Source: a virus (taxonomy: Duplodnaviria; Heunggongvirae; Uroviricota; Caudoviricetes). Taken from it: 33,563 bases of DNA. Shown in pieces: positions 6,954 through 33,563 of the stretch. The notes below the pieces were generated by a model, which saw nothing but the letters and a program-made list of their open reading frames with translations, was not told where the DNA came from and did not search any database. Each line of letters starts with the position of its first letter. The first letter of the stretch is position 1. The position numbers were made by a program, and so were the translations under genes. The stretch lies in IMG/VR virus record IMGVR_UViG_2690316149_000019; one strand, 5' to 3'.

Positions 6954-7430
6954 ATGAGCATCGCAGCTAAAAATCTGCTTAATCGCTATTGGGATCGCCG
7001 ACTACCTGTCGATCCGTTTAAGCTCGCCGCAGCGTGGGGTGCAAGAGTGGAGCCGCTCAGGGAACCAGCGAATGGGTTAAGTGGTTCAGCCGTAATAGAA
7101 AATGGCATACCTTATATTTATTTTAACTCAAATGAACATTACAACCGCCAACGCTTTACTGTAGCGCATGAGCTCGGTCATCATGTTTTAGGGCATACTC
7201 AAGACGGAGAATATCATCGCGATATTGTAGGCAACTACTCAACTGGCATCCGTGATTATCGTGAAATAGAAGCTAACCAGTTTGCTGCAGAGCTATTGAT
7301 GCCGGAAGAGGCCATTCGTCAACTAGTGTCGCGTATAGGCGTTGATAGTACATTACGTTTGGCAAACATATTTAACGTTTCTGAGGCTGCTATGCACTGG
7401 CGTCTTAAAGCGTTGGGTATGGCTTACTAA
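6954..7430 (+). CDS. ImmA/IrrE-family (COG2856-like) zinc metallopeptidase
   Basis: HEXXH motif in FTVAHELGHHVLGH and a downstream glutamate-containing motif (EANQFAAELLMP). 158 aa with a strong AGGAGG ribosome-binding site. Confidence 0.75.
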   Translation: MSIAAKNLLNRYWDRRLPVDPFKLAAAWGARVEPLREPANGLSGSAVIENGIPYIYFNSNEHYNRQRFTVAHELGHHVLGHTQDGEYHRDIVGNYSTGIRDYREIEANQFAAELLMPEEAIRQLVSRIGVDSTLRLANIFNVSEAAMHWRLKALGMAY

Positions 7431-7460
7431 TACCCTCTTTAACTTTTTTCAAACCGGTTT

Positions 7461-7495
7461 AAAATCACCATTATTTTATTAATAATGGTGATTTT
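7461..7495. promoter_or_regulatory. Perfect 15-bp inverted repeat (aaaatcaccattatt / aataatggtgatttt, 5-nt loop) abutting the ATG of the membrane-protein gene
   Basis: Seen in sequence. Preceded by the 10-bp palindrome aaaccggttt (7451-7460) and followed by a T-run; the right arm contains the only Shine-Dalgarno-like element (GGTGA) for ATG 7498. Confidence 0.6.
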
Positions 7496-7497
7496 TT

Positions 7498-8118
7498 ATG
7501 GCAGATATCGACCTCTCTGGCCAATCTCCGGCTCAGTCTTCCCAGCCATCCAAAACTTCAACCTTTCCACATCCACCTAGCGATGCCGATCCAGATATTT
7601 TGTTACGTAGAGAAGTGCATGATGGCATGGAAAGGAGGGGAATGCGCTTAGTTTTGTCAGCCACCGTACTTTTTTTTGCCATAATGTTTTTATGGAAAGG
7701 TCTGTATTTCGCTCTCGAAGTCGGAAATGGTTTGCTTGCGGCTAAAAGTAGTATTGTTTCAGCGTTGGCACAAAATGATGAAAAGGTTGTTTGCGAACCT
7801 AAAACTAAATGTATTGAGCCTAAACAGCAGACAATGAAACCTACAGAAAAAACTCCCGGCATGTCAACAAAGGGTGATAGAGTAATGCCAAACTTATCTA
7901 CAGATTGGCTTTCTGCAAGTTCGCTAATTGCCATAGTCGCTTTCATCCTTGGTGTTGGCTTGACGTTAATCCTTACCCTACTTAAGTCCGCTTTTCATCA
8001 TCCGACTGATAAAAATCTCAATGAGCAAAAAACAACAGATGCGATTGAGTTGGCGACTCCCTTAAGTGAGTTAATCGCGGGTATTATTAATTATCTCAAG
8101 AGCAAATTTTCTAAATAA
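7498..8118 (+). CDS. Membrane protein of unknown function (two predicted transmembrane helices)
   Basis: 206 aa with hydrophobic stretches LVLSATVLFFAIMFLWKGLYFAL and LIAIVAFILGVGLTLILTLL and a Pro/Ser/Thr-rich N-terminus; lower GC than the phage core. Confidence 0.6.
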   Translation: MADIDLSGQSPAQSSQPSKTSTFPHPPSDADPDILLRREVHDGMERRGMRLVLSATVLFFAIMFLWKGLYFALEVGNGLLAAKSSIVSALAQNDEKVVCEPKTKCIEPKQQTMKPTEKTPGMSTKGDRVMPNLSTDWLSASSLIAIVAFILGVGLTLILTLLKSAFHHPTDKNLNEQKTTDAIELATPLSELIAGIINYLKSKFSK

Positions 8119-8327
8119 CGTCCTCTTGGTTATTTTTTAAATCAGCACCATTAGTGCCGGTTTTTTTATGCTGTTTTACTGTAATTTCCCTGTTTTTAAG
8201 CCGTGCATGCAGCAGGTGCATGGTTTTGCATGCGCAGGAAGTGTCCGTTCTGGCCGAGCACCGGCAGAACGGACGCGGATCCAGAACGGTCATGCAACTG
8301 CATTCAAACCACCCCATGAAGCGGGCG

Positions 8328-8346
8328 GGCGAGGCGGGGAAAGCAC
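8328..8346. other. cos: cos site (19-nt cohesive end sequence, P2-type)
   Basis: ggcgaggcggggaaagcac matches the P2 cohesive-end sequence as I recall it. It lies between the accessory locus and Q, where cos sits in P2, and a 10-bp stem-loop (8243-8274) is nearby. Confidence 0.7.
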
Positions 8347-8515
8347 TGCGCGCTGGCGGTGGTGCTGATTTTATTTTTTCAGCGTCTGAGCGCGTCGTGA
8401 TGGCGTTTAGATTGTGCGCCGGGGCGTTGGTGTGTCTGCGGGCTGTTTTGTGCGGTGGTGAGCGTGTGAGGGCGTGATGACGGGGGGTAAAAAAGCCGCC
8501 CGCAGGCGGCGATGT

Positions 8516-17247: not shown

Positions 17248-17692
17248 GTTTAAGCGTTTTGAAGACCGGCTGACCGGACTGATTGAGTCGCTGTCACCGT
17301 CAGGGCGTCGGCGACTGAGTGCCGAACTGGCGAAACGTCTGCGGCAGAGTCAGCAGCGTCGGGTGATGGCGCAGAAAGCCCCGGACGGCACACCCTACGC
17401 GCCACGTCAGCAGCAGAGCGTCAGAAAAAAGACCGGTCGTGTTAAGCGAAAAATGTTTGCGAAACTTATCACCAGTCGTTTTTTGCATATCCGCGCCAGC
17501 CCGGAGCAGGCATCAATGGAATTTTACGGCGGGAAGTCGCCGAAAATCGCCAGTGTGCATCAGTTCGGTCTGTCGGAAGAAACCCGGAAAGACGGTAAGA
17601 AAATTGATTATCCGGCGCGTCCTCTGCTCGGCTTTACCGGTGAGGATGTGCAGATGATTGAGGAGATTATCCTGGCTCACCTTGAGCGTTAG
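17240..17692 (+). CDS. S: Tail completion protein S
   Basis: 150 aa, P2 gpS length and position. Confidence 0.85.
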   Translation: MNEFKRFEDRLTGLIESLSPSGRRRLSAELAKRLRQSQQRRVMAQKAPDGTPYAPRQQQSVRKKTGRVKRKMFAKLITSRFLHIRASPEQASMEFYGGKSPKIASVHQFGLSEETRKDGKKIDYPARPLLGFTGEDVQMIEEIILAHLER

Positions 17693-17722
17693 TTTTATCC
17701 AGGCAGAGGCTGATGCGCAATT

Positions 17723-17757
17723 AAACATTGAGCGGCCATGCTGGTCGCTCAATGTTT
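17723..17757. terminator. Bidirectional stem-loop between convergent S and the moron gene
   Basis: aaacattgagcg (loop gccatgctggt) cgctcaatgttt: a 12-bp perfect stem. Confidence 0.55.
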
Positions 17758-17763
17758 AGAGGT

Positions 17764-18549
17764 TTATGAGTGATTTTTATTTGATGCTTTGTATTCTAAA
17801 ACCTTCTTATTGGCGTAAAAGAATTTTGTATATGACAGGAATATAACCAGACCTGAAGTGAAATAGACGAGGGATAGTATTAATAATGCTTTTTTGTGAC
17901 TGTTATTATCTTTAATCTCCTGGCTTAACCATTCGGAGTCCTCCTCGTTTAGCTGTAAGAGCTTATTGCAGGCGATTTCAGGAAGTGTGTCTTTTATAAA
18001 TACGTTTTGCAGTCTCTTGCAATCGGCAAGGCTATAAGTTTTATTAAATTCAACTGCTTTATTTTTGAAGGATAAAAGAACTTTGTCACTATAAACATAG
18101 TACATCATATTTTTATATGGTATGCCTATGGCATCTCTTACTATAGCGGATTGTTTGTTGTGTATATAACATGCGAAGAGAATATAAATAATACTGGCCA
18201 GAATTACAATTATTGTTTTAATTATGTGTGGTGGTTTTGTTATGTCACCCCAGATGCGAGTAAGGAAAAAATACGATGTTTTTAGTTTTCCATCAATCAG
18301 TCCCTGCTGTATCATTCTCACATTTTCAATGCCTGATACATTGATTCCGTTAATTATTTTAAATAGTTGAATGTCGCGCCACTCGCGGTCAAGTCTTTTT
18401 AATTTTTTGTCTGAATATCCAAAATTGAAATAATGTGCAATAAGCCTCATAAGGTTACTTTTACCAAAGCTAAAAAATGCTAATACTGCAAAGCTACAAA
18501 GGAAAAAAACGATTAGCCCCCACACATTAGTCACATTATAGCTGACCAT
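17764..18549 (-). CDS. AT-rich moron: membrane protein of unknown function (P2 orf30 position)
   Basis: 261 aa with three hydrophobic helices (N-terminal, central, C-terminal), Lys/Asn/Ile/Tyr-rich. Much lower GC than the flanking tail genes and transcribed against the late operon. Confidence 0.7.
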   Translation of the reverse strand: MVSYNVTNVWGLIVFFLCSFAVLAFFSFGKSNLMRLIAHYFNFGYSDKKLKRLDREWRDIQLFKIINGINVSGIENVRMIQQGLIDGKLKTSYFFLTRIWGDITKPPHIIKTIIVILASIIYILFACYIHNKQSAIVRDAIGIPYKNMMYYVYSDKVLLSFKNKAVEFNKTYSLADCKRLQNVFIKDTLPEIACNKLLQLNEEDSEWLSQEIKDNNSHKKALLILSLVYFTSGLVIFLSYTKFFYANKKVLEYKASNKNHS

Positions 18550-18632
18550 TACGCTCTCCTTGAATGTTGTCTGGTAGTTCTACAAATGAATCCAGATAGC
18601 ATAACTTTTATATATTGTGCAATCTCACATGC

Positions 18633-19268
18633 ATGAACACTCTCGCAAATATTCAGGAACTCGCGCGCGCACTGCGCAACATGATTCGCACCGGCATTAT
18701 CGTCGAAACCGACCTTAACGCCGGTCGCTGCCGCGTGCAGACCGGCGGCATGTGCACCGACTGGCTTCAGTGGCTGACCCATCGTGCCGGGCGTTCGCGC
18801 ACATGGTGGGCACCTTCCGTGGGGGAACAGGTGCTGATTCTGGCCGTGGGCGGTGAACTCGACACGGCGTTCGTTCTGCCGGGGATTTATTCCGGCGATA
18901 ACCCTGCGCCGTCTGCGTCGGCTGATGCCCTGCATATCCGTTTCCCTGACGGGGCGGTGATTGAGTATGAACCCGAAACCAGTGCACTCACGGTAAGCGG
19001 AATTAAAACGGCCAGCGTGACGGCTTCTGATTCTGTTACTGCCACGGTACCGGTGGTCACGGTGAAAGCGTCAACCCGTGTCACCCTGGACACACCAGAA
19101 GTGGTCTGCACTAACAAACTGACTACCGGCACGCTGGAAGTGCAGAAGGGCGGGACGATGCGCGGCAACATTGAACACACCGGCGGTGAACTCTCATCAA
19201 ACGGTAAGGTACTGCATACCCATAAACACCCCGGCGACAGCGGCGGCACAACCGGGAGTCCTTTATGA
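18633..19268 (+). CDS. V: Baseplate spike protein
   Basis: 211 aa from MNTLANIQELARALRNMIRTG, matching P2 gpV. Confidence 0.88.
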   Translation: MNTLANIQELARALRNMIRTGIIVETDLNAGRCRVQTGGMCTDWLQWLTHRAGRSRTWWAPSVGEQVLILAVGGELDTAFVLPGIYSGDNPAPSASADALHIRFPDGAVIEYEPETSALTVSGIKTASVTASDSVTATVPVVTVKASTRVTLDTPEVVCTNKLTTGTLEVQKGGTMRGNIEHTGGELSSNGKVLHTHKHPGDSGGTTGSPL

Positions 19269-19612
19269 CAGCGCGTTATCTCGGAATGAATCGCAGTGAT
19301 GGCCTGACTGTCACTGACCTTGAGCATATCAGCCAGAGTATCGGCGATATCCTGCGCACACCGGTCGGCTCACGGGTGATGCGTCGTGATTACGGCTCGT
19401 TGCTGGCATCAATGATTGACCAGCCGCAGACCCCGGCGCTTGAGTTGCAGATTAAGGTCGCCTGTTACATGGCGGTGCTGAAATGGGAACCCCGCGTCAC
19501 CCTGTCATCCGTCACCACTGAGCGCAGTTTTGACGGGCGAATGACGGTCACGTTAACCGGCCAGCACAACGACACCGGCCAGCCACTTTCATTAACCATC
19601 CCTGTGAGTTGA
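19265..19612 (+). CDS. W: Baseplate wedge protein W
   Basis: 115 aa, P2 gpW length and position. Confidence 0.88.
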   Translation: MTARYLGMNRSDGLTVTDLEHISQSIGDILRTPVGSRVMRRDYGSLLASMIDQPQTPALELQIKVACYMAVLKWEPRVTLSSVTTERSFDGRMTVTLTGQHNDTGQPLSLTIPVS

Positions 19613-19616
19613 AACC

Positions 19617-20525
19617 ATGCCGATTATCGACCTGAACCAGCTACCCGCACCGGATGTGGTCGAGGAGCTGGACTTTGAAAGCATTCTCGCTGAACGCAAG
19701 GCGACACTGATTTCCCTTTACCCGGAAGATCAGCAGGAGGCGGTCGCCGGTACCCTGACACTGGAATCCGAGCCTCTCGTCAAACTGCTGGAGGAAAATG
19801 CTTATCGTGAGCTTATCTGGCGTCAGCGTGTGAATGAGGCCGCACGGGCGGTGATGCTGGCCTGTGCCGCCGGTAATGACCTTGATGTGATTGGTGCCAA
19901 TTACAACACCACGCGCCTGATTATCACTCCGGCAGATGATTCGACTATCCCGCCGACACCGGCAGTGATGGAATCTGACACCGATTATCGTCTGCGTATT
20001 CAGCAGGCGTTTGAGGGCTTAAGCGTCGCCGGGTCGGTGGGGGCCTATCAGTATCATGGTCGCAGTGCCGACGGGCGTGTCGCGGATATCTCTGTCACCA
20101 GTCCGTCTCCGGCCTGCGTCACCATCTCCGTACTGTCACGTGAAAATAACGGTGTCGCATCCGAAGACCTGCTGGCTGTGGTGCGTAACGCTCTTAATGG
20201 CGAGGACGTCAGGCCGGTGGCCGACCGCGTGACCGTGCAGTCTGCCGCCATCGTTGAATACCAGATAAACGCCACGCTTTACCTTTACCCTGGTCCCGAA
20301 AGCGAACCCATCCGCGCTGCCGCCGTGAAAAAACTGGAAGCGTACATCACGGCACAGCACCGGCTGGGGCGCGACATCCGTCTGTCTGCCATTTATGCCG
20401 CCTTGCATGTGGAAGGCGTGCAGCGTGTCGAACTGGCTGCACCACTGGCCGACATCGTGCTCAACAGTACGCAGGCGTCTTTCTGCACCGAATACCACGT
20501 CGTGACCGGAGGCTCGGATGAGTGA
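19617..20525 (+). CDS. J: Baseplate protein J
   Basis: 302 aa, P2 gpJ length and position. Confidence 0.88.
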   Translation: MPIIDLNQLPAPDVVEELDFESILAERKATLISLYPEDQQEAVAGTLTLESEPLVKLLEENAYRELIWRQRVNEAARAVMLACAAGNDLDVIGANYNTTRLIITPADDSTIPPTPAVMESDTDYRLRIQQAFEGLSVAGSVGAYQYHGRSADGRVADISVTSPSPACVTISVLSRENNGVASEDLLAVVRNALNGEDVRPVADRVTVQSAAIVEYQINATLYLYPGPESEPIRAAAVKKLEAYITAQHRLGRDIRLSAIYAALHVEGVQRVELAAPLADIVLNSTQASFCTEYHVVTGGSDE

Positions 20526-21058: not shown

Positions 21059-23308
21059 ATGAGCACAAAATTCAAAACCGTTATCACCACTGCTGGTGCA
21101 GCAAAGCTGGCAGCGGCAACCGCGCCGGGAGGGCGGAAGGTCAACATTACCACGATGGCCGTCGGGGATGGCGGTGGTAAATTGCCTGTCCCGGATGCCG
21201 GACAGACCGGGCTTATCCACGAAGTCTGGCGACATGCGCTGAACAAAATCAGCCAGGACAAACGAAACAGTAATTATATTATCGCAGAGCTGGTTATTCC
21301 GCCGGAGGTGGGCGGTTTCTGGATGCGTGAGCTTGGCCTGTACGATGATGCTGGAACGTTAATTGCCGTGGCGAACATGGCTGAAAGTTATAAGCCAGCT
21401 CTTGCCGAAGGCTCAGGGCGTTCGCAGACCTGCCGCATGGTCATCATCGTCAGCAGTGTGGCCTCAGTGGCGCTGACCATTGACACCACAACGGTGATGG
21501 CAACGCAGGATTACGTTGATGACAAAATTGCAGAACATGAACAGTCACGACGTCACCCGGACGCCTCGCTGACCGCCAAAGGTTTTACTCAGTTAAGCAG
21601 TGCGACCAACAGCACGTCTGAAACACTCGCCGCAACACCAAAAGCGGTAAAAGCAGCATATGACCTTGCTAACGGGAAATACACTGCACAGGACGCCACC
21701 ACAGCGCGAAAAGGCCTTGTCCAGCTCAGTAGTGCCACCAACAGCACGTCTGAAACGCTCGCCGCAACACCAAAAGCGGTAAAAGCAGCATATGACCTTG
21801 CTAACGGGAAATACACTGCACAGGACGCCACCACCGCGCGAAAAGGCCTTGTCCAGCTCAGTAGCGCCACCAACAGCGATTCTGAAACGCTTGCGGCAAC
21901 GCCAAAGGCGGTTAAGACAGCGTATGACCTTGCTAACGGGAAATACACTGCACAGGATGCCACCACAGCGCGAAAAGGTCTTGTCCAGCTCAGTAGCGCC
22001 ACCAACAGTGATTCTGAAACGCTGGCTGCAACACCAAAAGCGGTGAAGTCTGCCTATGACAATGCTGAAAAACGTCTTCAGAAAGATCAGAACGGTGCGG
22101 ATATTCCTGATAAAGGACGCTTCCTGAGTAACATTAATGTTTACAGCAAAGGTGAAGTGGATAAGAAAAAGGGAATGCGAAAGTATTCGTTTGCAGCCCC
22201 TGCAAATGTCGTTGCCGGGAAGTGGTATCCCGTTATCTTTCGCCGTGCTGCCAGCCTTTCAGGAGAAATGGCATCCCGCGTCGTTATTTCAACTGGTTGT
22301 TATAACGGCGATTATGTAATGAATAACTGCGAGTTTAATGGCATGGTTATGCCCGGAGGCTGGACCGATCGTGGTTCATATGCGGCAGGTTATTTCTGGA
22401 CGTATCAGACTAATGAGCGTTCAATCCATTCCATTGTTACAAGCCTGAAAGATGATGATGTATGTAGTGTTTTTTATGTTGAAGCCAGAGCTTTCCCTGT
22501 GCAAATTCTTGCAGAGGAAGGGCTAACGGTTATTGTTCCGACAGAGGATTATGTCGTCGGTCAAACGACATATAAGTGGGGGGCAACTAATCCCGCTACA
22601 GAAAGCACGAACGCACAGGCTATTCTGGATTTTAAAAATGGACGTGGTTATTACTGTTCACATCCATTTATTTCCAGCCTTTCAGGAAATGCTGCAACAG
22701 CAACGAAGTTAGCGAACGCAAGAAATATTAATGGTGTCAGATTTGATGGCTCTGCCGATATAAATATTAATACACTGGTATCCAGAAACCGTGTTAATGC
22801 ATTAGGTGGGAGCGTAAAGGGGACACCAGGTATTCAGATGTATGAGGCATACAACAATGGCTACCCAACAGCCTATGGTAATGTGCTTCATCTCACTGGC
22901 GTAACCGCAGTAGGAGAGGGTGAGTTACTTATTGGCTGGAGTGGAACCAGCGGTGCTCATGCTCCGGCATATATTCGTTCCCGACGAGATACCACAGATG
23001 CTAACTGGTCTGGATGGGCGCAACTATATACAACTGCTCATAAACCCTCAGCGGGAGATGTTGGTGCATACACCAAAACTGAGTCAGATTCACGTTATGT
23101 GAGAGACATGCGGCTGGGCGGTGCATCTACATATAAACCAGCAAATAATGGTACTACATGGACGCATCAGGCTCCGTCAGGTTGCGTATATACCGGCATT
23201 ATTGTTCAGGATACCGGCTCAAACTCTGCCGATAACATTGGTGGCGTATATTACAGACCGGTGCAGAAATACATTAACGGGACATGGTATAACGTGGCGC
23301 AGGTATAA
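21059..23308 (+). CDS. H: Tail fibre protein H with internal tandem repeats
   Basis: 749 aa with a conserved P2-like N-terminus (MSTKFKTVITTAGAAKLAAATAPGG), then four tandem 44-aa repeats, then a C-terminal domain of about 400 aa. Confidence 0.88.
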   Translation: MSTKFKTVITTAGAAKLAAATAPGGRKVNITTMAVGDGGGKLPVPDAGQTGLIHEVWRHALNKISQDKRNSNYIIAELVIPPEVGGFWMRELGLYDDAGTLIAVANMAESYKPALAEGSGRSQTCRMVIIVSSVASVALTIDTTTVMATQDYVDDKIAEHEQSRRHPDASLTAKGFTQLSSATNSTSETLAATPKAVKAAYDLANGKYTAQDATTARKGLVQLSSATNSTSETLAATPKAVKAAYDLANGKYTAQDATTARKGLVQLSSATNSDSETLAATPKAVKTAYDLANGKYTAQDATTARKGLVQLSSATNSDSETLAATPKAVKSAYDNAEKRLQKDQNGADIPDKGRFLSNINVYSKGEVDKKKGMRKYSFAAPANVVAGKWYPVIFRRAASLSGEMASRVVISTGCYNGDYVMNNCEFNGMVMPGGWTDRGSYAAGYFWTYQTNERSIHSIVTSLKDDDVCSVFYVEARAFPVQILAEEGLTVIVPTEDYVVGQTTYKWGATNPATESTNAQAILDFKNGRGYYCSHPFISSLSGNAATATKLANARNINGVRFDGSADININTLVSRNRVNALGGSVKGTPGIQMYEAYNNGYPTAYGNVLHLTGVTAVGEGELLIGWSGTSGAHAPAYIRSRRDTTDANWSGWAQLYTTAHKPSAGDVGAYTKTESDSRYVRDMRLGGASTYKPANNGTTWTHQAPSGCVYTGIIVQDTGSNSADNIGGVYYRPVQKYINGTWYNVAQV
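21578..22059 (+). repeat. Four tandem in-frame copies of a 132-bp unit inside H
   Basis: The marker accaacagc recurs at 21605, 21737, 21869 and 22001, an exact 132-bp period. Copies differ at a few synonymous and missense positions (NSTSE vs NSDSE). Confidence 0.9.
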
Positions 23309-23311
23309 TTT

Positions 23312-23839
23312 ATGCAGCATTTAAAAAATATTACGGCGGGTAATCCAAAAACGGTTGAACAATATCAATTGACAAAGGACTTTGATGTTGTCTGGTTTTT
23401 TTCAGAAGATGGTAAGAACTGGTACGAAGAACAAAAGTATTTTGCTGATGACACGATAAAAATAGCGTACGACAAAGATAATATCATCCACTATGTGGAA
23501 AAGGATGTGACAGCTATCAGACCGGATGGATTAAGTGTTGTTGAAGTGGCGGATATTACTGCTAACCGACGGGCGGACATTTCAGGGAACTGGATGTTTA
23601 AGGACGGCAAAGTGATTAAACGCATTTATACGGCAGAGGAATTACAGCAGCAGGCAGAAATTCGGAAAGCCAGACTTCTTGCAGATGCTGAATCCGTGAT
23701 TTTGCCGCTGGAGCGCGCGGTCAGACTGAACATGGCAACAGATGAGGAGCGTAGCCGACTGGAATCATGGGAACGCTACAGCGTTCTGATCAGTCGTGTG
23801 GATCCTGCAAATCCTGAATGGCCGGAAATGCCGCAATAA
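23312..23839 (+). CDS. G: Tail fibre assembly chaperone
   Basis: 175 aa immediately downstream of H. Confidence 0.85.
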
Positions 23840-24178: not shown

Positions 24179-25225
24179 GTGATATTTTCTACAAAGAAAA
24201 ATATATGGAATAACGTCATCGCGGGTACAAAAATGACTATAAAAAAAACATATGTAACACCAACAGAAATAGTGAAATATTTTTATGACAAACCGGAAAA
24301 CGATAACGTAAAAGAGAGAAAAACAATTGAGAGCCTGACCCGTCTCAAACCTGAGTGGGAAAATACTCTCGATATGATGAAGTTAATACGCAATTGTGAA
24401 AAGCTAGCAACTGAAGGTATTTTAATGGAATTATCTTCAGGACATACTCTTTTGGACCGTTGCTATTTCGCACCGAATTTCAATGAATCAGATGCGAAAT
24501 ATGGAAAGTATGATTTTATAGCTGATGGATTTGAGTCAATCATAGACCGCCTTAGTCCTTCCGTTTTACCTGTTGTTGTTGAAAAAAGTGATGGTTCACA
24601 TGATCTTGGTACTAGTTTTATTGTTGGGAATAACCACACGATATTTACAGCCAGACATGTTATTGAAGACATGAAGAGTATCAGGATACTTAGAGCTGGT
24701 GGTGAGGCTTTACCAATACATAAAATCTTTGTATCTAACGATGAACGTATTGATATCGCTTTAGTTTTCACAACCATTCCGAATGAAGATAATATTCAAC
24801 CACTTAAGGTCTCAACCAAAGCCTCGGTACTGGATGAAATTTTATCAATAGGATTTCCACCCATTCCAGGATTTGATGCATTAAAGTTATATGACGTTTC
24901 GCATATAAATTCGTTTGTCCGACTGTCAAAGGGGCGAATTGTTGGTTCTGGTCACTCTTACTTAGATTCACAAGACTTTTTATTATTCAATGCTAGGGTT
25001 AAGGGGGGGAATAGCGGTGGCCCTATAATTAACAAATACGGCTTTGTTGTTGGTATGCTTGTACAAATACCAATATCATCTGAGGACAGTTCAAAGATTG
25101 ATAACCTTGGATATGGTATAGCTGTAACAGGAAAAAGCCTGCTGGATGCCATTACATTTACAGAAAATGGCCGCGAATTAACACTCACCGACCGAGGAAA
25201 TGGAGAATATTCAACTCTAGCATAA
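24179..25225 (+). CDS. AT-rich moron: trypsin-like (S1/chymotrypsin-fold) serine protease with an unknown N-terminal domain of about 140 aa
   Basis: Catalytic triad context in order: TARHVIED (His), ERIDIALVF (Asp), GGNSGGPII (GxSGG Ser). The annotated start is a GTG; an in-frame ATG at 24233 is an alternative. Occupies the P2 Z/fun position between G and FI. Confidence 0.75.
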   Translation: MIFSTKKNIWNNVIAGTKMTIKKTYVTPTEIVKYFYDKPENDNVKERKTIESLTRLKPEWENTLDMMKLIRNCEKLATEGILMELSSGHTLLDRCYFAPNFNESDAKYGKYDFIADGFESIIDRLSPSVLPVVVEKSDGSHDLGTSFIVGNNHTIFTARHVIEDMKSIRILRAGGEALPIHKIFVSNDERIDIALVFTTIPNEDNIQPLKVSTKASVLDEILSIGFPPIPGFDALKLYDVSHINSFVRLSKGRIVGSGHSYLDSQDFLLFNARVKGGNSGGPIINKYGFVVGMLVQIPISSEDSSKIDNLGYGIAVTGKSLLDAITFTENGRELTLTDRGNGEYSTLA

Positions 25226-28028: not shown

Positions 28029-30468
28029 CAATGTAAAATTACAGGTATTGCTCAGGGCTGTTGACCAGGCATCCCGCCCGTTTAAATCCATCCGCACAGC
28101 GAGCAAGTCGCTGTCGGGGGATATCCGGGAAACACAAAAATCACTGCGCGAGCTGAACGGTCACGCATCCCGTATTGAGGGATTTCGCAAGACCAGTGCG
28201 CAGCTCGCCGTGACTGGTCATGCACTTGAAAAGGCACGGCAGGAAGCCGAAGCCCTTGCCACACAGTTTAAAAACACCGAACGTCCGACCCGTGCTCAGG
28301 CGAAAGTGCTGGAATCCGCAAAGCGTGCGGCGGAGGACTTACAGGCGAAATATAACCGCCTGACGGATTCCGTTAAACGCCAGCAGCGGGAACTGGCCGC
28401 TGTGGGAATTAATACCCGCAATCTTGCACATGATGAGCAGGGGCTGAAAAACCGTATCAGTGAAACCACCGCACAGCTTAACCGGCAGCGTGACGCGCTG
28501 GCGCGTGTCAGTGCACAACAGGCAAAACTTAACGCAGTCAAACAGCGTTATCAGGCAGGAAAAGAACTTGCCGGAAATATGGCCTCAGTGGGCGCTGCCG
28601 GTGTGGGGATTGCGGCGGCGGGAACGATGGCCGGAGTTAAGCTGCTGATGCCCGGTTATGAGTTTGCGCAGAAAAACTCAGAATTGCAGGCCGTGCTCGG
28701 TGTGGCAAAAGATTCCGCCGAAATGGCCGCGCTCCGCAAACAGGCGCGCCAGCTCGGCGACAATACCGCCGCCTCAGCGGATGATGCGGCCGGTGCGCAG
28801 ATTATCATTGCGAAAGCGGGTGGAGATGCTGCGGCTATTCAGGCGGCAACGCCGGTCACGCTGAATATGGCACTGGCGAATCAGCGGTCGATGGAAGAAA
28901 ACGCGCAACTGTTGCTGGGGACTAAGGCATCCTTTCAACTGTCAAATGATGATGTCAGCCATGTGGGCGACGTGTTGTCGGCAACGATGAATAAGTCGGC
29001 GGCTGATTTTCAGGGACTCAGTGATGCACTGACTTACCTCGGTCCGGTTGCGAGGACGGCAGGTGTAAGTCTTGAACAGGCAGCGGCCATGACAGGTGTG
29101 CTGCATGACAATAACATCAGGGGGTCAATGGCGGGTACGGGTGGCAGTGCCGTTGTCACCCGATTACAGGCACCGACTGGAAAAGCATGGGATGCACTCA
29201 AAGAGCTTGGCGTTAAAACCTCGGACAAAAAGGGAAATATGCGTCCGTTGTTCACCATTCTGAAAGAGATTCAGGCCAGCTTTGATAAACACAAGCTGGG
29301 AACGTCTCAGAAGGGGGAATACCTTAAAACCATTTTTGGTGAGGAAGCCCTGAAATCAGCGAACGTTTTACTGGCAGCGGCTGCAAGCGGAAAACTGGAT
29401 AAGCTGACCGCCACACTGAAAGCCTCAGACGGTAAAACGGAAGAGCTGGTTAAAATCATGCAGGACAACCTCGGCGGTGACTTTAAGGAGTTTCAGTCCG
29501 CTTATGAAGCGGTGGGGACTGACCTGTTTGACCAGCAGGAAGGCGCACTGCGTAAGCTCACGCAGACGGCCACAAAGTATGTGTTAAAACTCGACGGCTG
29601 GATACAGAAAAACAAATCACTGGCGTCAACCATTGGCCTAATTGCCGGTGGCGCGCTGGCGCTTACTGGCATCATCGGTGCCATTGGTCTTGTAGCCTGG
29701 CCGGTTATCACCGGCATCAATGCCATCATCGCGGCAGCAGGCGCAATGGGGGCAATCTTCACGACGGTTGGCAGTGCTGTTATGACCGCCATCGGGGCGA
29801 TTAGCTGGCCGGTTGTGGCCGTGGTGGCCGCCATTGTCGCCGGGGCGTTGCTTATCCGTAAATACTGGGAGCCTGTCAGCGCATTCTTTGGCGGTGTGAT
29901 GGAAGGGCTGAAAGCGGCATTTGCGCCGGTGGGGGAACTGTTCACGCCACTTAAGCCGGTGTTTGACTGGCTGGGCGAAAAGTTACAGGCCGCGTGGCAG
30001 TGGTTTAAAAACCTGATTGCCCCGGTCAAAGCCACCCAGGACACCCTGAACCGTTGCCGTGATACTGGCGTCATGTTCGGGCAGGCACTGGCTGACGCGC
30101 TGATGCTGCCGCTTAATGCGTTCAACAAACTGCGCAGCGGAATTGACTGGGTACTGGAAAAACTCGGTGTTATCAACAAAGAGTCAGACACACTTGACCA
30201 GACCGCCGCCAGAACTCAAGCCGCCACGTATGGCAGCGGTGGTTATATTCCGGCGACCAGCTCTTATGCAGGCTATCAGGCTTATCAGCCGGTTACGGCA
30301 CCGGCTGGCCGCTCTTATGTGGACCAGAGTAAAAACGAATATCACATCAGCCTGACGGGTGGTACTGCGCCGGGGACACAGCTTGACCGCCAGTTACAGG
30401 ATGCGCTCGAAAAATACGAGCGGGATAAACGTGCGCGCGCCCGTGCCAGCATGATGCATGACGGTTAA
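28021..30468 (+). CDS. T: Tail tape measure protein
   Basis: 815 aa with an alpha-helical N-terminal half and a Gly/Ala-rich hydrophobic segment; P2 gpT length and position. Confidence 0.9.
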   Translation: MSNNVKLQVLLRAVDQASRPFKSIRTASKSLSGDIRETQKSLRELNGHASRIEGFRKTSAQLAVTGHALEKARQEAEALATQFKNTERPTRAQAKVLESAKRAAEDLQAKYNRLTDSVKRQQRELAAVGINTRNLAHDEQGLKNRISETTAQLNRQRDALARVSAQQAKLNAVKQRYQAGKELAGNMASVGAAGVGIAAAGTMAGVKLLMPGYEFAQKNSELQAVLGVAKDSAEMAALRKQARQLGDNTAASADDAAGAQIIIAKAGGDAAAIQAATPVTLNMALANQRSMEENAQLLLGTKASFQLSNDDVSHVGDVLSATMNKSAADFQGLSDALTYLGPVARTAGVSLEQAAAMTGVLHDNNIRGSMAGTGGSAVVTRLQAPTGKAWDALKELGVKTSDKKGNMRPLFTILKEIQASFDKHKLGTSQKGEYLKTIFGEEALKSANVLLAAAASGKLDKLTATLKASDGKTEELVKIMQDNLGGDFKEFQSAYEAVGTDLFDQQEGALRKLTQTATKYVLKLDGWIQKNKSLASTIGLIAGGALALTGIIGAIGLVAWPVITGINAIIAAAGAMGAIFTTVGSAVMTAIGAISWPVVAVVAAIVAGALLIRKYWEPVSAFFGGVMEGLKAAFAPVGELFTPLKPVFDWLGEKLQAAWQWFKNLIAPVKATQDTLNRCRDTGVMFGQALADALMLPLNAFNKLRSGIDWVLEKLGVINKESDTLDQTAARTQAATYGSGGYIPATSSYAGYQAYQPVTAPAGRSYVDQSKNEYHISLTGGTAPGTQLDRQLQDALEKYERDKRARARASMMHDG

Positions 30469-30482
30469 GGAGGTGACGAAAA

Positions 30483-30962
30483 ATGATGCTCGCGTTAGGT
30501 ATGTTTGTTTTTATGCGCCAGACGCTGCCACACCAGACCATGCAGCGTGAATCAGATTATCGCTGGCCGTCAAATTCCCGTATCGGTAAACGGGATGCCT
30601 TTCAGTTTCTCGGTGTGGGTGAGGAAAACATCACACTTGCCGGCGTGCTTTATCCCGAACTGACCGGCGGGAAGCTGACGATGACCACGCTCAGGCTGAT
30701 GGCAGAGGAAGGCCGGGCGTGGCCGTTGCTGGATGGCACCGGCATGATTTACGGCATGTATGTCATCAGCAAGGTGAGTGAAACAGGGAGTATTTTCTTT
30801 GCAGATGGCACACCCCGAAAAATTGATTTTACGCTGTCGCTCACCCGCGTTGATGAATCACTGGCCGCGCTTTATGGCGATATCGGTAAACAGGCGGAAT
30901 CGCTCATCGGTAAGGCTGGCAGTATGGCGACTAAATTCACGGGTATGACGGGGGCGGGATAA
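30483..30962 (+). CDS. U: Tail protein U
   Basis: 159 aa, P2 gpU length and position. Confidence 0.85.
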   Translation: MMLALGMFVFMRQTLPHQTMQRESDYRWPSNSRIGKRDAFQFLGVGEENITLAGVLYPELTGGKLTMTTLRLMAEEGRAWPLLDGTGMIYGMYVISKVSETGSIFFADGTPRKIDFTLSLTRVDESLAALYGDIGKQAESLIGKAGSMATKFTGMTGAG

Positions 30963-32125
30963 TGCTGGATGCGCTGACATTTGATGCAGGCAGTACGCTG
31001 ACGCCGGATTACATGCTGATGCTCGACAGCAGGGATATTACCGGCAATATCAGCGACCGTCTGATGAGCATGACCCTGACGGATAACCGGGGCTTTGAGG
31101 CTGACCAGCTTGATATTGAACTGAACGATGCCGACGGGCAGGTCGGGCTGCCGGTTCGTGGCGCTGTCCTGACGGTGTATATCGGCTGGAAAGGTTTTGC
31201 CCTGGTATGCAAAGGGAAATTTACCGTTGATGAGGTTGAACACCGGGGCGCACCGGATGTGGTCACCATCCGCGCCCGGAGTGCAGATTTTCGCGGGACG
31301 CTCAATTCCCGCCGTGAAGGCTCCTGGCATGACACCACGCTCGGTGCGATTGTTGAGGCGATAGCCTCCCGTAACAGGCTGGAAGCCAGTGTCGTTCCAT
31401 CACTGGCCGGAATTAAAATCCCGCACATCGACCAGTCGCAGGAGTCTGATGCAAAATTCCTGACCCGCCTTGCTGAACGCAACGGCGGTGAGGTGTCGGT
31501 AAAAATGGGAAAACTGTTGTTTCTCAAAGCGGGGCAGGGGGTGACGGCCAGCGGTAAAAAAGTCCCGCAGGTCACCATAACCCGCAGCGACGGCGACCGC
31601 CATCATTTTGCGATTGCTGACCGTGGAGCCTATACCGGCGTAACGGCAAAGTGGTTACACACCAAAGACCCGAAGCCGCAAAAGCAGAAGGTAAAACTGA
31701 AACGCAAAAAGAAAGAGAAACACCTGCGCGCACTGGAGCACCCGAAAGCGAAACCAGTCACGCAGAAGAAAGCGCCAAAAGTACCGGAAGCGCGCGAAGG
31801 TGAATACATGGCCGGTGAGGCTGACAACGTTTTTGCACTGACCACGGTATATGCCACGAAAGCACAGGCCATGCGCGCCGCTCAGGCGAAGTGGGATAAA
31901 CTGCAACGGGGTGTGGCGGAGTTCTCCATCAGCCTGGCTACCGGTCGGGCAGATATTTACACGGAAACACCGGTTAAAGTGTCAGGCTTTAAGCGCGTCA
32001 TAGACGAGCAGGACTGGACAATCACTAAGGTGACACATTTTCTGAATAATAGCGGCTTCACGACGTCCTTAGAGCTTGAGGTCAGGCTTTCTGATGTGGA
32101 GTACGAAACCGAAGATGATGAGTGA
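30962..32125 (+). CDS. D: Tail protein D (late control D)
   Basis: 387 aa with an internal highly basic, lysine-rich segment; P2 gpD length and position. Confidence 0.88.
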   Translation: MLDALTFDAGSTLTPDYMLMLDSRDITGNISDRLMSMTLTDNRGFEADQLDIELNDADGQVGLPVRGAVLTVYIGWKGFALVCKGKFTVDEVEHRGAPDVVTIRARSADFRGTLNSRREGSWHDTTLGAIVEAIASRNRLEASVVPSLAGIKIPHIDQSQESDAKFLTRLAERNGGEVSVKMGKLLFLKAGQGVTASGKKVPQVTITRSDGDRHHFAIADRGAYTGVTAKWLHTKDPKPQKQKVKLKRKKKEKHLRALEHPKAKPVTQKKAPKVPEAREGEYMAGEADNVFALTTVYATKAQAMRAAQAKWDKLQRGVAEFSISLATGRADIYTETPVKVSGFKRVIDEQDWTITKVTHFLNNSGFTTSLELEVRLSDVEYETEDDE

Positions 32126-32660: not shown

Positions 32661-33563
32661 ATGAATCAATCTTATGGACGGCTGGTCAGTCGGGCGGCGA
32701 TTGCTGCGACGGCGATGGCTTCGTTGCTATTGCTGATTAAAATTTTTGCATGGTGGTATACCGGGTCGGTGAGTATTCTCGCCGCGCTGGTGGATTCGCT
32801 GGTGGATATCGGCGCGTCGTTGACGAATTTATTGGTGGTGCGATATTCCCTGCAACCTGCCGACGATAATCACTCGTTTGGTCACGGTAAAGCTGAGTCC
32901 CTCGCGGCGCTGGCGCAAAGTATGTTTATCTCCGGTTCGGCACTATTCCTGTTTTTGACGGGTATTCAACATCTGATATCTCCAACACCGATGACAGATC
33001 CAGGCGTCGGGGTTATCGTGACAATTGTGGCGCTAATTTGTACGATTATCCTTGTCTCGTTTCAGCGTTGGGTGGTGCGGCGGACGCAAAGCCAGGCGGT
33101 GCGGGCTGATATGCTACATTACCAGTCTGATGTTATGATGAACGGCGCAATTCTGCTGGCGCTGGGGTTGTCCTGGTACGGCTGGCATCGCGCCGATGCT
33201 CTGTTTGCATTGGGAATCGGCATCTATATTTTATATAGCGCGTTACGCATGGGATATGAGGCGGTACAGTCATTACTGGATCGCGCATTGCCTGATGAGG
33301 AACGGCAAGAAATTATTGATATCGTGACTTCCTGGCCGGGTGTTAGCGGCGCTCACGATCTTCGCACGCGGCAGTCAGGGCCGACCCGCTTTATTCAGAT
33401 TCATTTGGAAATGGAAGACTCTCTGCCTTTGGTTCAGGCACATATGGTGGCGGATCAGGTAGAGCAGGCTATTTTACGGCGTTTTCCGGGATCGGATGTA
33501 ATTATCCATCAGGACCCCTGTTCCGTCGTACCCAGGGAGGGTAAACGGTCTATGCTTTCATAA
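32661..33563 (+). CDS. fieF: Cation diffusion facilitator FieF (ferrous-iron/zinc efflux), host gene
   Basis: 300 aa from [54 protein letters not shown], recognised as enterobacterial FieF/YiiP. The stop codon is the last triplet of the window. Confidence 0.9.

Follow-up and report, generated by a model that had tools for sequence, protein, structure and literature searches.

That the tail fibres of phages are mosaics is textbook knowledge. In phages Mu and P1 the fibre tips are switched by an invertase acting on an invertible segment, the alternative Sv'/U' gene pair lying inverted downstream. One sequence element recurs in several such fibres: the PF03406 unit is found in P2 gpH (two copies), in Mu S and in lambda Stf. 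It has been described in lambda Stf and in the collagen-like fibre proteins of EHEC prophages, with little known of its structure and function (PMC3368898). Exchange of distal fibre parts has also been engineered: chimeric P2-P1(S') fibres are functional and redirect the delivery host (PMC9942202).

Here we analyse the tail fibre gene H of a P2-like prophage, in which PF03406 units form a tandem array. We describe the anatomy of this array, its copy number among complete Escherichia coli genomes and the distal half of the protein, and we compare the gene with the fibres of P2, Mu, P1 and lambda.

Results

The H gene and its surroundings

The window (the whole stretch of DNA analysed, 33,563 nucleotides; IMG/VR record IMGVR_UViG_2690316149_000019) is a complete P2-like (Peduovirus) prophage, and its H region is 100% identical to that of E. 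coli strain 602687 (NZ_CP189657.1; stool, Bangladesh). As judged by comparing the annotation of NZ_CP189657 with that of P2 (NC_001895), the prophage genes follow the P2 order, V-W-J-I-H-G-[cargo]-FI-FII-E-T-U-D-ogr. Gene H (21059..23308; all coordinates are those of the window and of its plus strand unless stated otherwise) is an intact open reading frame for a 749-aa tail fibre protein, placed in the same W-J-I-H-G order as in P2, and its product has 99% identity with numerous E. coli entries of 749 aa named 'tail fiber protein'. H is flanked upstream by I (PF09684) and downstream by G (23312..23839), which confirms the P2-type operon position. G encodes a tail fibre assembly chaperone of 175 aa, with a match to the Caudo_TAP family (Pfam PF02413, E = 1.8e-33) and 75% identity to P2 gpG.

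Neither the ORF list nor the RefSeq annotation contains a recombinase or an inverted fibre fragment, and G is followed only by a gene for an S1 peptidase and by FI, both on the same strand. An invertible tail-fibre switch of the Mu G segment or P1 C segment type was considered and dropped, there being no invertase and no inverted genes; a diversity-generating retroelement was dropped as well, since no reverse transcriptase is annotated by RefSeq anywhere in the prophage.

The N-terminal domain of H (aa 1-151) and the linker that follows it (aa 152-177) are encoded at 21059..21589. The domain matches PF12571 (E = 2.4e-58, aa 1-151) and, judging from what is known of this family, would dock H to the baseplate.

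Anatomy of the repeat array

Tandem Repeats Finder reports a single array at 21605-22044, with a period of 132, 3.3 copies, 92% matches, 0% indels and a score of 726. A repeat search recovers 225-nt copies that overlap one another, three in all, with starts at 21578, 21710 and 21842 (spacing 132 and 132), which sets the limits of the repeated stretch at 21578-22066. Such a score, with a period of exactly 132 nt and not one indel, lies well outside what chance would produce.

Read in the codon register of H, the first unit, u1 (21590..21721), comprises 44 codons encoding QLSSATNSTSETLAATPKAVKAAYDLANGKYTAQDATTARKGLV and matches PF03406. The second, u2 (21722..21853), encodes the same peptide and is 95.5% identical to u1 in DNA, while the third, u3 (21854..21985), carries a T-to-D and an A-to-T substitution and is 86-89% identical to u1 and u2. 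The fourth, u4 (21986..22060), is truncated to the first 25 codons: it tracks the other units for about 75 nt or 25 codons (QLSSATNSDSETLAATPKAVKSAYD), with 87% identity to u3 over the first 69 nt that is then lost, and departs into NAEKRLQKDQNGADIP. The preliminary description had spoken of four tandem repeats, which agrees with the four PF03406 matches scored by Pfam; anatomically, however, there are three full units and one truncated one. Its exact in-frame period of 132 bp stands, with no indels and the 749-aa reading frame intact, and the 44-aa consensus peptide that it quoted is correct.

The repeat unit is a known, curated Pfam module, an identity that the preliminary description had missed. 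H scores 266.2 bits against PF03406 (Phage_fiber_2, 'phage tail fibre repeat'; E = 6.1e-81) in four stretches, where the profile has 42 positions and a curated cut-off of 22 bits; the best stretch, aa 170-210, covers profile positions 1-41 of 42.

Pairwise DNA identity between the full units is 95.5% for u1/u2, 88.6% for u2/u3 and 85.6% for u1/u3. Thus, while the earlier claim of only a few substitutions holds for the protein, with 0-2 differences between units, it does not hold for the DNA, with 6-19 differences per 132 nt. Every unit carries diagnostic SNPs. Runs of identity between units extend over 35-77 nt, the 77-nt run being shared by u1 and u2. In the frame of H the between-unit changes are 5/0, 14/2 and 11/2 (synonymous/non-synonymous), and because the codon differences are so overwhelmingly synonymous, the peptide of the unit is under purifying selection.

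The units probably form the shaft of the fibre, and each would add to its length. An AlphaFold2 model of the full-length H monomer, built on a shallow alignment of close homologues, had a mean pLDDT of 33.9 and gave no usable fold or rise per unit.

Copy number among H alleles

To survey the alleles, we searched 5,426 complete E. coli genomes by BLAST with the H gene. The 2250-bp, four-copy gene is present whole in 42 records, each covered by one alignment (97-100% identity), and is the form carried by 42 of the 46 complete genomes with this H allele family. The remainder fall into two length classes. A 2118-bp allele with three copies (705 aa) is found in two complete genomes, PapRG-06-3 and SWHEFF_58, and a 2382-bp allele with five copies (793 aa) in two more, EH01-18-02 (Laos) and ECE228 (Melbourne), which share one protein accession.

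Unit-by-unit comparison reveals how these alleles relate to that of the window. PapRG-06-3 has the window allele minus u2, a clean loss. In SWHEFF_58 the first unit is a u1/u2 hybrid bearing C114, a private mark of u2; since this junction differs from that in PapRG-06-3, the two contractions appear to be independent. The extra unit of the five-copy EH01-18-02 allele is of the u3 type through position 69 and of the u2 type past position 104, exactly the product that would be expected of an out-of-register u3 x u2 crossover inside a 35-nt identical run. The hybrid units at the junctions of the three- and five-copy alleles bear out the earlier proposal of unequal recombination or slippage in register, and unequal crossover or slippage, two routes that sequence alone cannot separate, would be the source of unit gain and loss. 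The direction of the copy-number events is likewise read from the hybrid units, and gene conversion between units or recombination with other H alleles could confound it.

Shorter forms are also on record. Protein databases contain many 705-aa and 661-aa versions of H from draft assemblies. The 661-aa forms have two copies, a u1/u3 hybrid unit and a distal part of the window type; draft or short-read assemblies are their sole source, none being present in the complete genomes listed, and they may be either real or the result of assembly collapse.

Age of the four-unit array

The preliminary description had proposed a recent expansion in this prophage. This is not what we find, as the four-unit array is common to Peduoviruses with other distal parts. 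In Peduovirus P2DC1 (OU784750) the four unit types are identical in kind and order to those of the window, u2 being 1 nt off, and the distal domain is different. Four units are also present, in contiguous alignment, in phages P22H4, 9W, vB_YpM_46 and vB_EcoM-12474; two units are present in P2, Wphi, pro147, R18C and HQ103. Within the window the units are 4.5-14% apart in DNA, mostly at synonymous sites. Given that P2DC1, P22H4, 9W and others have the array, and given the 4.5-14% divergence of the units, the four-copy state is shared and older. The events documented in the H allele family would accordingly read as two contractions and one expansion, all from the four-copy state.

The distal half of H

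Past the last unit H is a composite. It begins with a junction segment, NAEKRLQKDQNGADIPDKGRFLSNI (22061..22135), that is conserved with Mu S, as seen in PDB alignments to residues 99-172 of Mu S and S/S'; the link to P1 at this point is the weaker one, a tblastn match. Homology to H genes of the P2DC1 type stops inside this junction, with a BLAST endpoint at H nt 1059 (aa 353, after NGADIP).

The middle module (aa 360-545; 22136..22693) is predicted to be globular and all-beta. It carries the motifs APAN..GKWYP, MNNCEFNG, GGWTDR, ERSIHS and FYVEARAFP, slightly different versions of the consensus of its family (APAG..GKYYP, PMNNCSF.G, GGWSDR, ERAIHS, FYVEARAFP). Relatives of the module form 129 clusters at 50% identity and sit at varying positions in proteins of 400-2700 aa. 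Pfam assigned no family to the module, either in H or in the 27 diverse members scanned, and a profile of the module searched against PDB sequences gave only spurious antibody matches (E > 0.01). This beta domain of about 170 aa is widespread in fibres, with neither a Pfam family nor a solved relative, a small gap in the description of these proteins. Over H residues 340-565, identity to the side tail fibres of siphophages HdSG1, JenK1 and 9g and of the lambdoid phage mEp332 is 57-78%.

A linker motif, GNAATATKLANARNINGVRFDGSADININ (aa 543-573; 22685..22777), marks the next module boundary, as indicated by BLAST endpoints and by the tblastn matches to P1 Sv', which begin at aa ~540. The endpoint at H nt 1643 (aa 548), where the ~98% homology to P22H4 and 9W ends, coincides with the conserved GNAATATKLAN... 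motif. The third BLAST endpoint is at H nt 2061 (aa 687).

The distal tip (aa 638-749; 22970..23308) is related to the Mu S' (G-) tip, to P1 Sv' and to the short tail fibre of phiTE. In a phmmer search against the PDB, aa 638-747 match 8ju3 (the Mu(-) S' fibre; i-E = 5e-16), aa 676-746 match 9cuy (phiTE; 1.3e-18) and aa 675-748 match 5yvq. By tblastn, H aa 540-749 are ~60% identical to P1 Sv'; an identity of this order would be too low to carry over the receptor specificity of the tip (LPS core variant).

The N-terminus and the repeats have a G+C content of 54-55%, against 44-48% for distal H and 42-47% for G, a drop that fits the view that the distal H-G block was acquired from another source. 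As the distal ~400 aa are unrelated to those of P2, receptor specificity is likely to differ from that of P2, and the host range may be altered relative to P2.

Discussion

The array anatomy, the family membership of the unit, the copy-number series, the hybrid junction units, the mosaic borders and the G+C drop were all observed here, and we consider one joint reading of them very probable. H would be a modular trimeric fibre with a shaft of PF03406 units, in which units are gained and lost with the frame kept and the unit also serves as a joint for distal swaps. A P2-type N-terminal domain would attach the trimeric fibre to the baseplate, and tandem 44-residue units, three full and one truncated, would make up the proximal shaft. 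Towards the tip would follow the Mu S-like junction, the all-beta middle domain and a Mu S'/P1 S'-type tip that binds the receptor and presumably folds with the aid of the downstream chaperone G. With identical runs of 35-77 nt, the 132-bp units are alike enough for misaligned pairing, after which whole units would be added or removed, without loss of frame, by unequal homologous crossover or by slippage during replication, yielding 3, 4 or 5 copies. Finally, the PF03406 unit, found in the fibres of unrelated phages, would also provide the stretch of homology through which distal receptor-binding parts are exchanged.

The repeat family and the gene are already known, and the exact allele can be found, with annotation, in public databases, where dozens of complete E. 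coli genomes carry it. We found no paper on copy-number variation of the PF03406 array in P2-like H, which is weak evidence given that coverage of subscription journals in our literature search was sparse.

Could copy number itself be under selection? It might act as a 'length rheostat', with the 44-aa units tuning the reach of the fibre to the thickness of the O-antigen or capsule. The three-, four- and five-copy alleles, the flanks of which are 97-99.5% identical, have arisen by independent events, and the peptide of the unit is under purifying selection, both points in its favour. However, the four-copy form dominates (42/46 complete genomes), which fits rare, nearly neutral changes, and P2 functions with two copies. 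We consider a selected rheostat unlikely. Our doubt is just as strong about the broader proposal that joins a fast-evolving rheostat, selected by the surface layer, to a second, lateral glycan-binding site in the mid-fibre beta domain.

The preliminary description had itself raised short-read assembly as a possible source of the repeat count. Mis-assembly or over-expansion of the array is conceivable in principle, because at ~490 bp it exceeds typical short reads, u1 and u2 share the 77-nt identical run, and the many 705-aa and 661-aa database versions come from draft assemblies. Yet the 2250-bp gene is contiguous, at 97-100% identity, in 42 E. coli genomes of complete level and unrelated origin, several isolated Peduoviruses align contiguously over four units, and the diagnostic SNPs are distinct for each unit. 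Since the whole gene lies in a single alignment in each of these 42 genomes, the four-unit array is not an artefact, and we regard mis-assembly as very improbable; if anything, the risk of collapse lies rather with the shorter variants in draft assemblies.

Weaker still is the case for an overlapping gene on the minus strand (21589..22005), a 138-aa periodic frame that is open and whose antisense-frame changes (synonymous/non-synonymous 5/1, 12/5 and 9/4) do not clearly speak against it: it starts with TTG, spans the array because the 132-nt unit is free of stops in one of its minus frames, three repeats of which simply make up the ORF, lies inside the strongly conserved structural gene H, in the frame of which there are fewer non-synonymous changes, would shift in length with copy number, and is neither annotated in the records examined nor matched by any family, so that it is almost certainly not a gene but, as the preliminary description held, an artefact of the repeats.

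Two practical points follow. The copy number of H is truly variable (3, 4 or 5 copies) and short-read assemblies may collapse the array; H lengths taken from draft genomes therefore need care. The conserved unit and the module borders at H nt 1059, 1643 and 2061 are natural splice points that may help in the construction of chimeric P2 or P4 fibres.

How does H compare with the fibres already described? Its closest well-studied counterpart is P2 gpH (NP_046775, 669 aa), with which it shares the V-W-J-I-H-G position and, at 95% identity, the first 242 aa, including the first units. The comparison of repeat copies and C-terminal domains with P2 and P2-like H proteins that the preliminary description had proposed shows one full and one truncated PF03406 unit in P2 gpH, as opposed to three and one in the window, and distal halves that are unrelated. 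Past its last unit P2 gpH continues into AVKTVMDETNKK..., whereas H continues into the Mu S-type junction, the beta domain and the S'-type tip; from aa ~335 onwards H is unrelated to P2 gpH, save for the last 75 aa (45% identity) and in particular the last 16 aa (15/16). H is, as had been noted, longer than P2 gpH (749 aa against 669 aa), and the difference of 80 aa is the sum of a surplus of 88 aa from two additional units and a deficit of 8 aa in the distal half.

The H proteins of P22H4 and 9W are nearer relatives, with 97.9% nucleotide identity over H nt 1-1643, four units and the middle domain in common. They differ past nt 1643, with an overall amino acid identity of 79% across the distal 410 aa, and therefore carry another tip variant.

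Mu S resembles H around the end of the array, where Mu S residues 99-172 align to the last unit and junction of H (...LVQL(S/T)SAT(N/D)S.SETLAAT.KAVK.A.DNA..RL.KD.NGADIP.K). The PDB alignment places a single unit in Mu S (PDB 5YVQ, 8JU3), and H has four. Relative to the Mu S and P1 S' fibres, H also lacks an invertible segment, and its baseplate domain is of the P2 type. With lambda Stf and the collagen-like fibres of EHEC prophages, finally, H shares the ~42-aa PF03406 repeat, which is variable in its context (PMC3368898): in those proteins the repeat is combined with a PF08400 N-terminus and with collagen or coiled-coil segments, whereas in H the units follow one another in tandem and are nearly identical.

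H annotation and disrupted alleles

In the RefSeq/PGAP annotation of NZ_CP189657.1 (E. coli 602687, in which the H region is 100% identical to ours), the tail fibre gene H (17375-19624; window 21059-23308) is split into two pseudogene fragments marked 'incomplete' (17375-18343; 19154-19366), and in several further genomes the locus is labelled 'tail fiber protein' and 'hypothetical protein'. Despite the pseudogene calls, the 749-aa H ORF is intact in NZ_CP189657.1. The split annotation looks like an artefact of a mosaic, repetitive gene, and real disruption of H is disfavoured.

A truncated copy of the same H allele occurs in E. coli Jnd12 (NZ_CP095820.1, locus L008, 2455-4164), where insertion of ISEc12, an IS21-family element, cuts H short just where the array of repeats begins, with istA/istB directly upstream. 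Shorter, 661-aa versions of this H allele with two units (loci L004 and L005, both Logan short-read contigs; proteins P0107-P0120) carry a hybrid of u1 and u3, the first and third full 132-bp units of the array. These versions were found in draft or short-read assemblies only, with none among the complete genomes listed, and may represent either a genuine contraction or an artefact of repeat collapse.

Middle domain and base composition of H

The central part of H (window 22136-22693; H aa 360-545) is a conserved all-beta domain of ~170 aa that falls into no Pfam family, has no closely related solved structure, is widespread among the tail fibres of sipho- and myophages, and is modelled confidently by AF2 (pLDDT 89). 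The G+C content breaks within H at window ~22000: the N-terminus and the repeats are at 54-55%, the distal part of H and the chaperone gene G at 42-48%. This discontinuity is consistent with the distal H-G block having been acquired horizontally.

Cargo slots and the right end of the prophage

Between G and FI, where P2 has its Z/fun cargo hotspot, lies a plus-strand gene for a 348-aa S1/trypsin-like peptidase (window 24179-25225; Pfam Trypsin_2, E 1.8e-17). The AT-rich island around it has a G+C content of 36-39%, as opposed to ~55% in the backbone, and the gene is matched by PADLOC to RT-Protease_XI, LmuA and HamA, at the level of the protease domain only. In E. coli EH01-18-02 and ECE228, which carry the 5-copy H allele, the same slot is occupied by gapS4a/gapS4b. 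The peptidase gene may be considered a candidate anti-phage cargo.

An IS66-family element (tnpA, tnpB and the ISEc22 transposase; window ~32690-33563, 29006-31341 in the E. coli 602687 locus) immediately follows ogr at the prophage's right end and extends beyond the window. The region at 6954-8477, with replication gene A/DUF3850 on one side and the portal gene on the other, corresponds in position to the tin/old cargo slot of P2; it contains a plus-strand ImmA/IrrE Peptidase_M78 gene (Pfam, E 8e-23), followed by two ORFs (206 aa and 107 aa) without a Pfam match. Finally, the minus-strand 261-aa gene between S and V (window 17764-18549), likewise without a match in the Pfam scan, resembles P2's non-essential orf30 in location and size.
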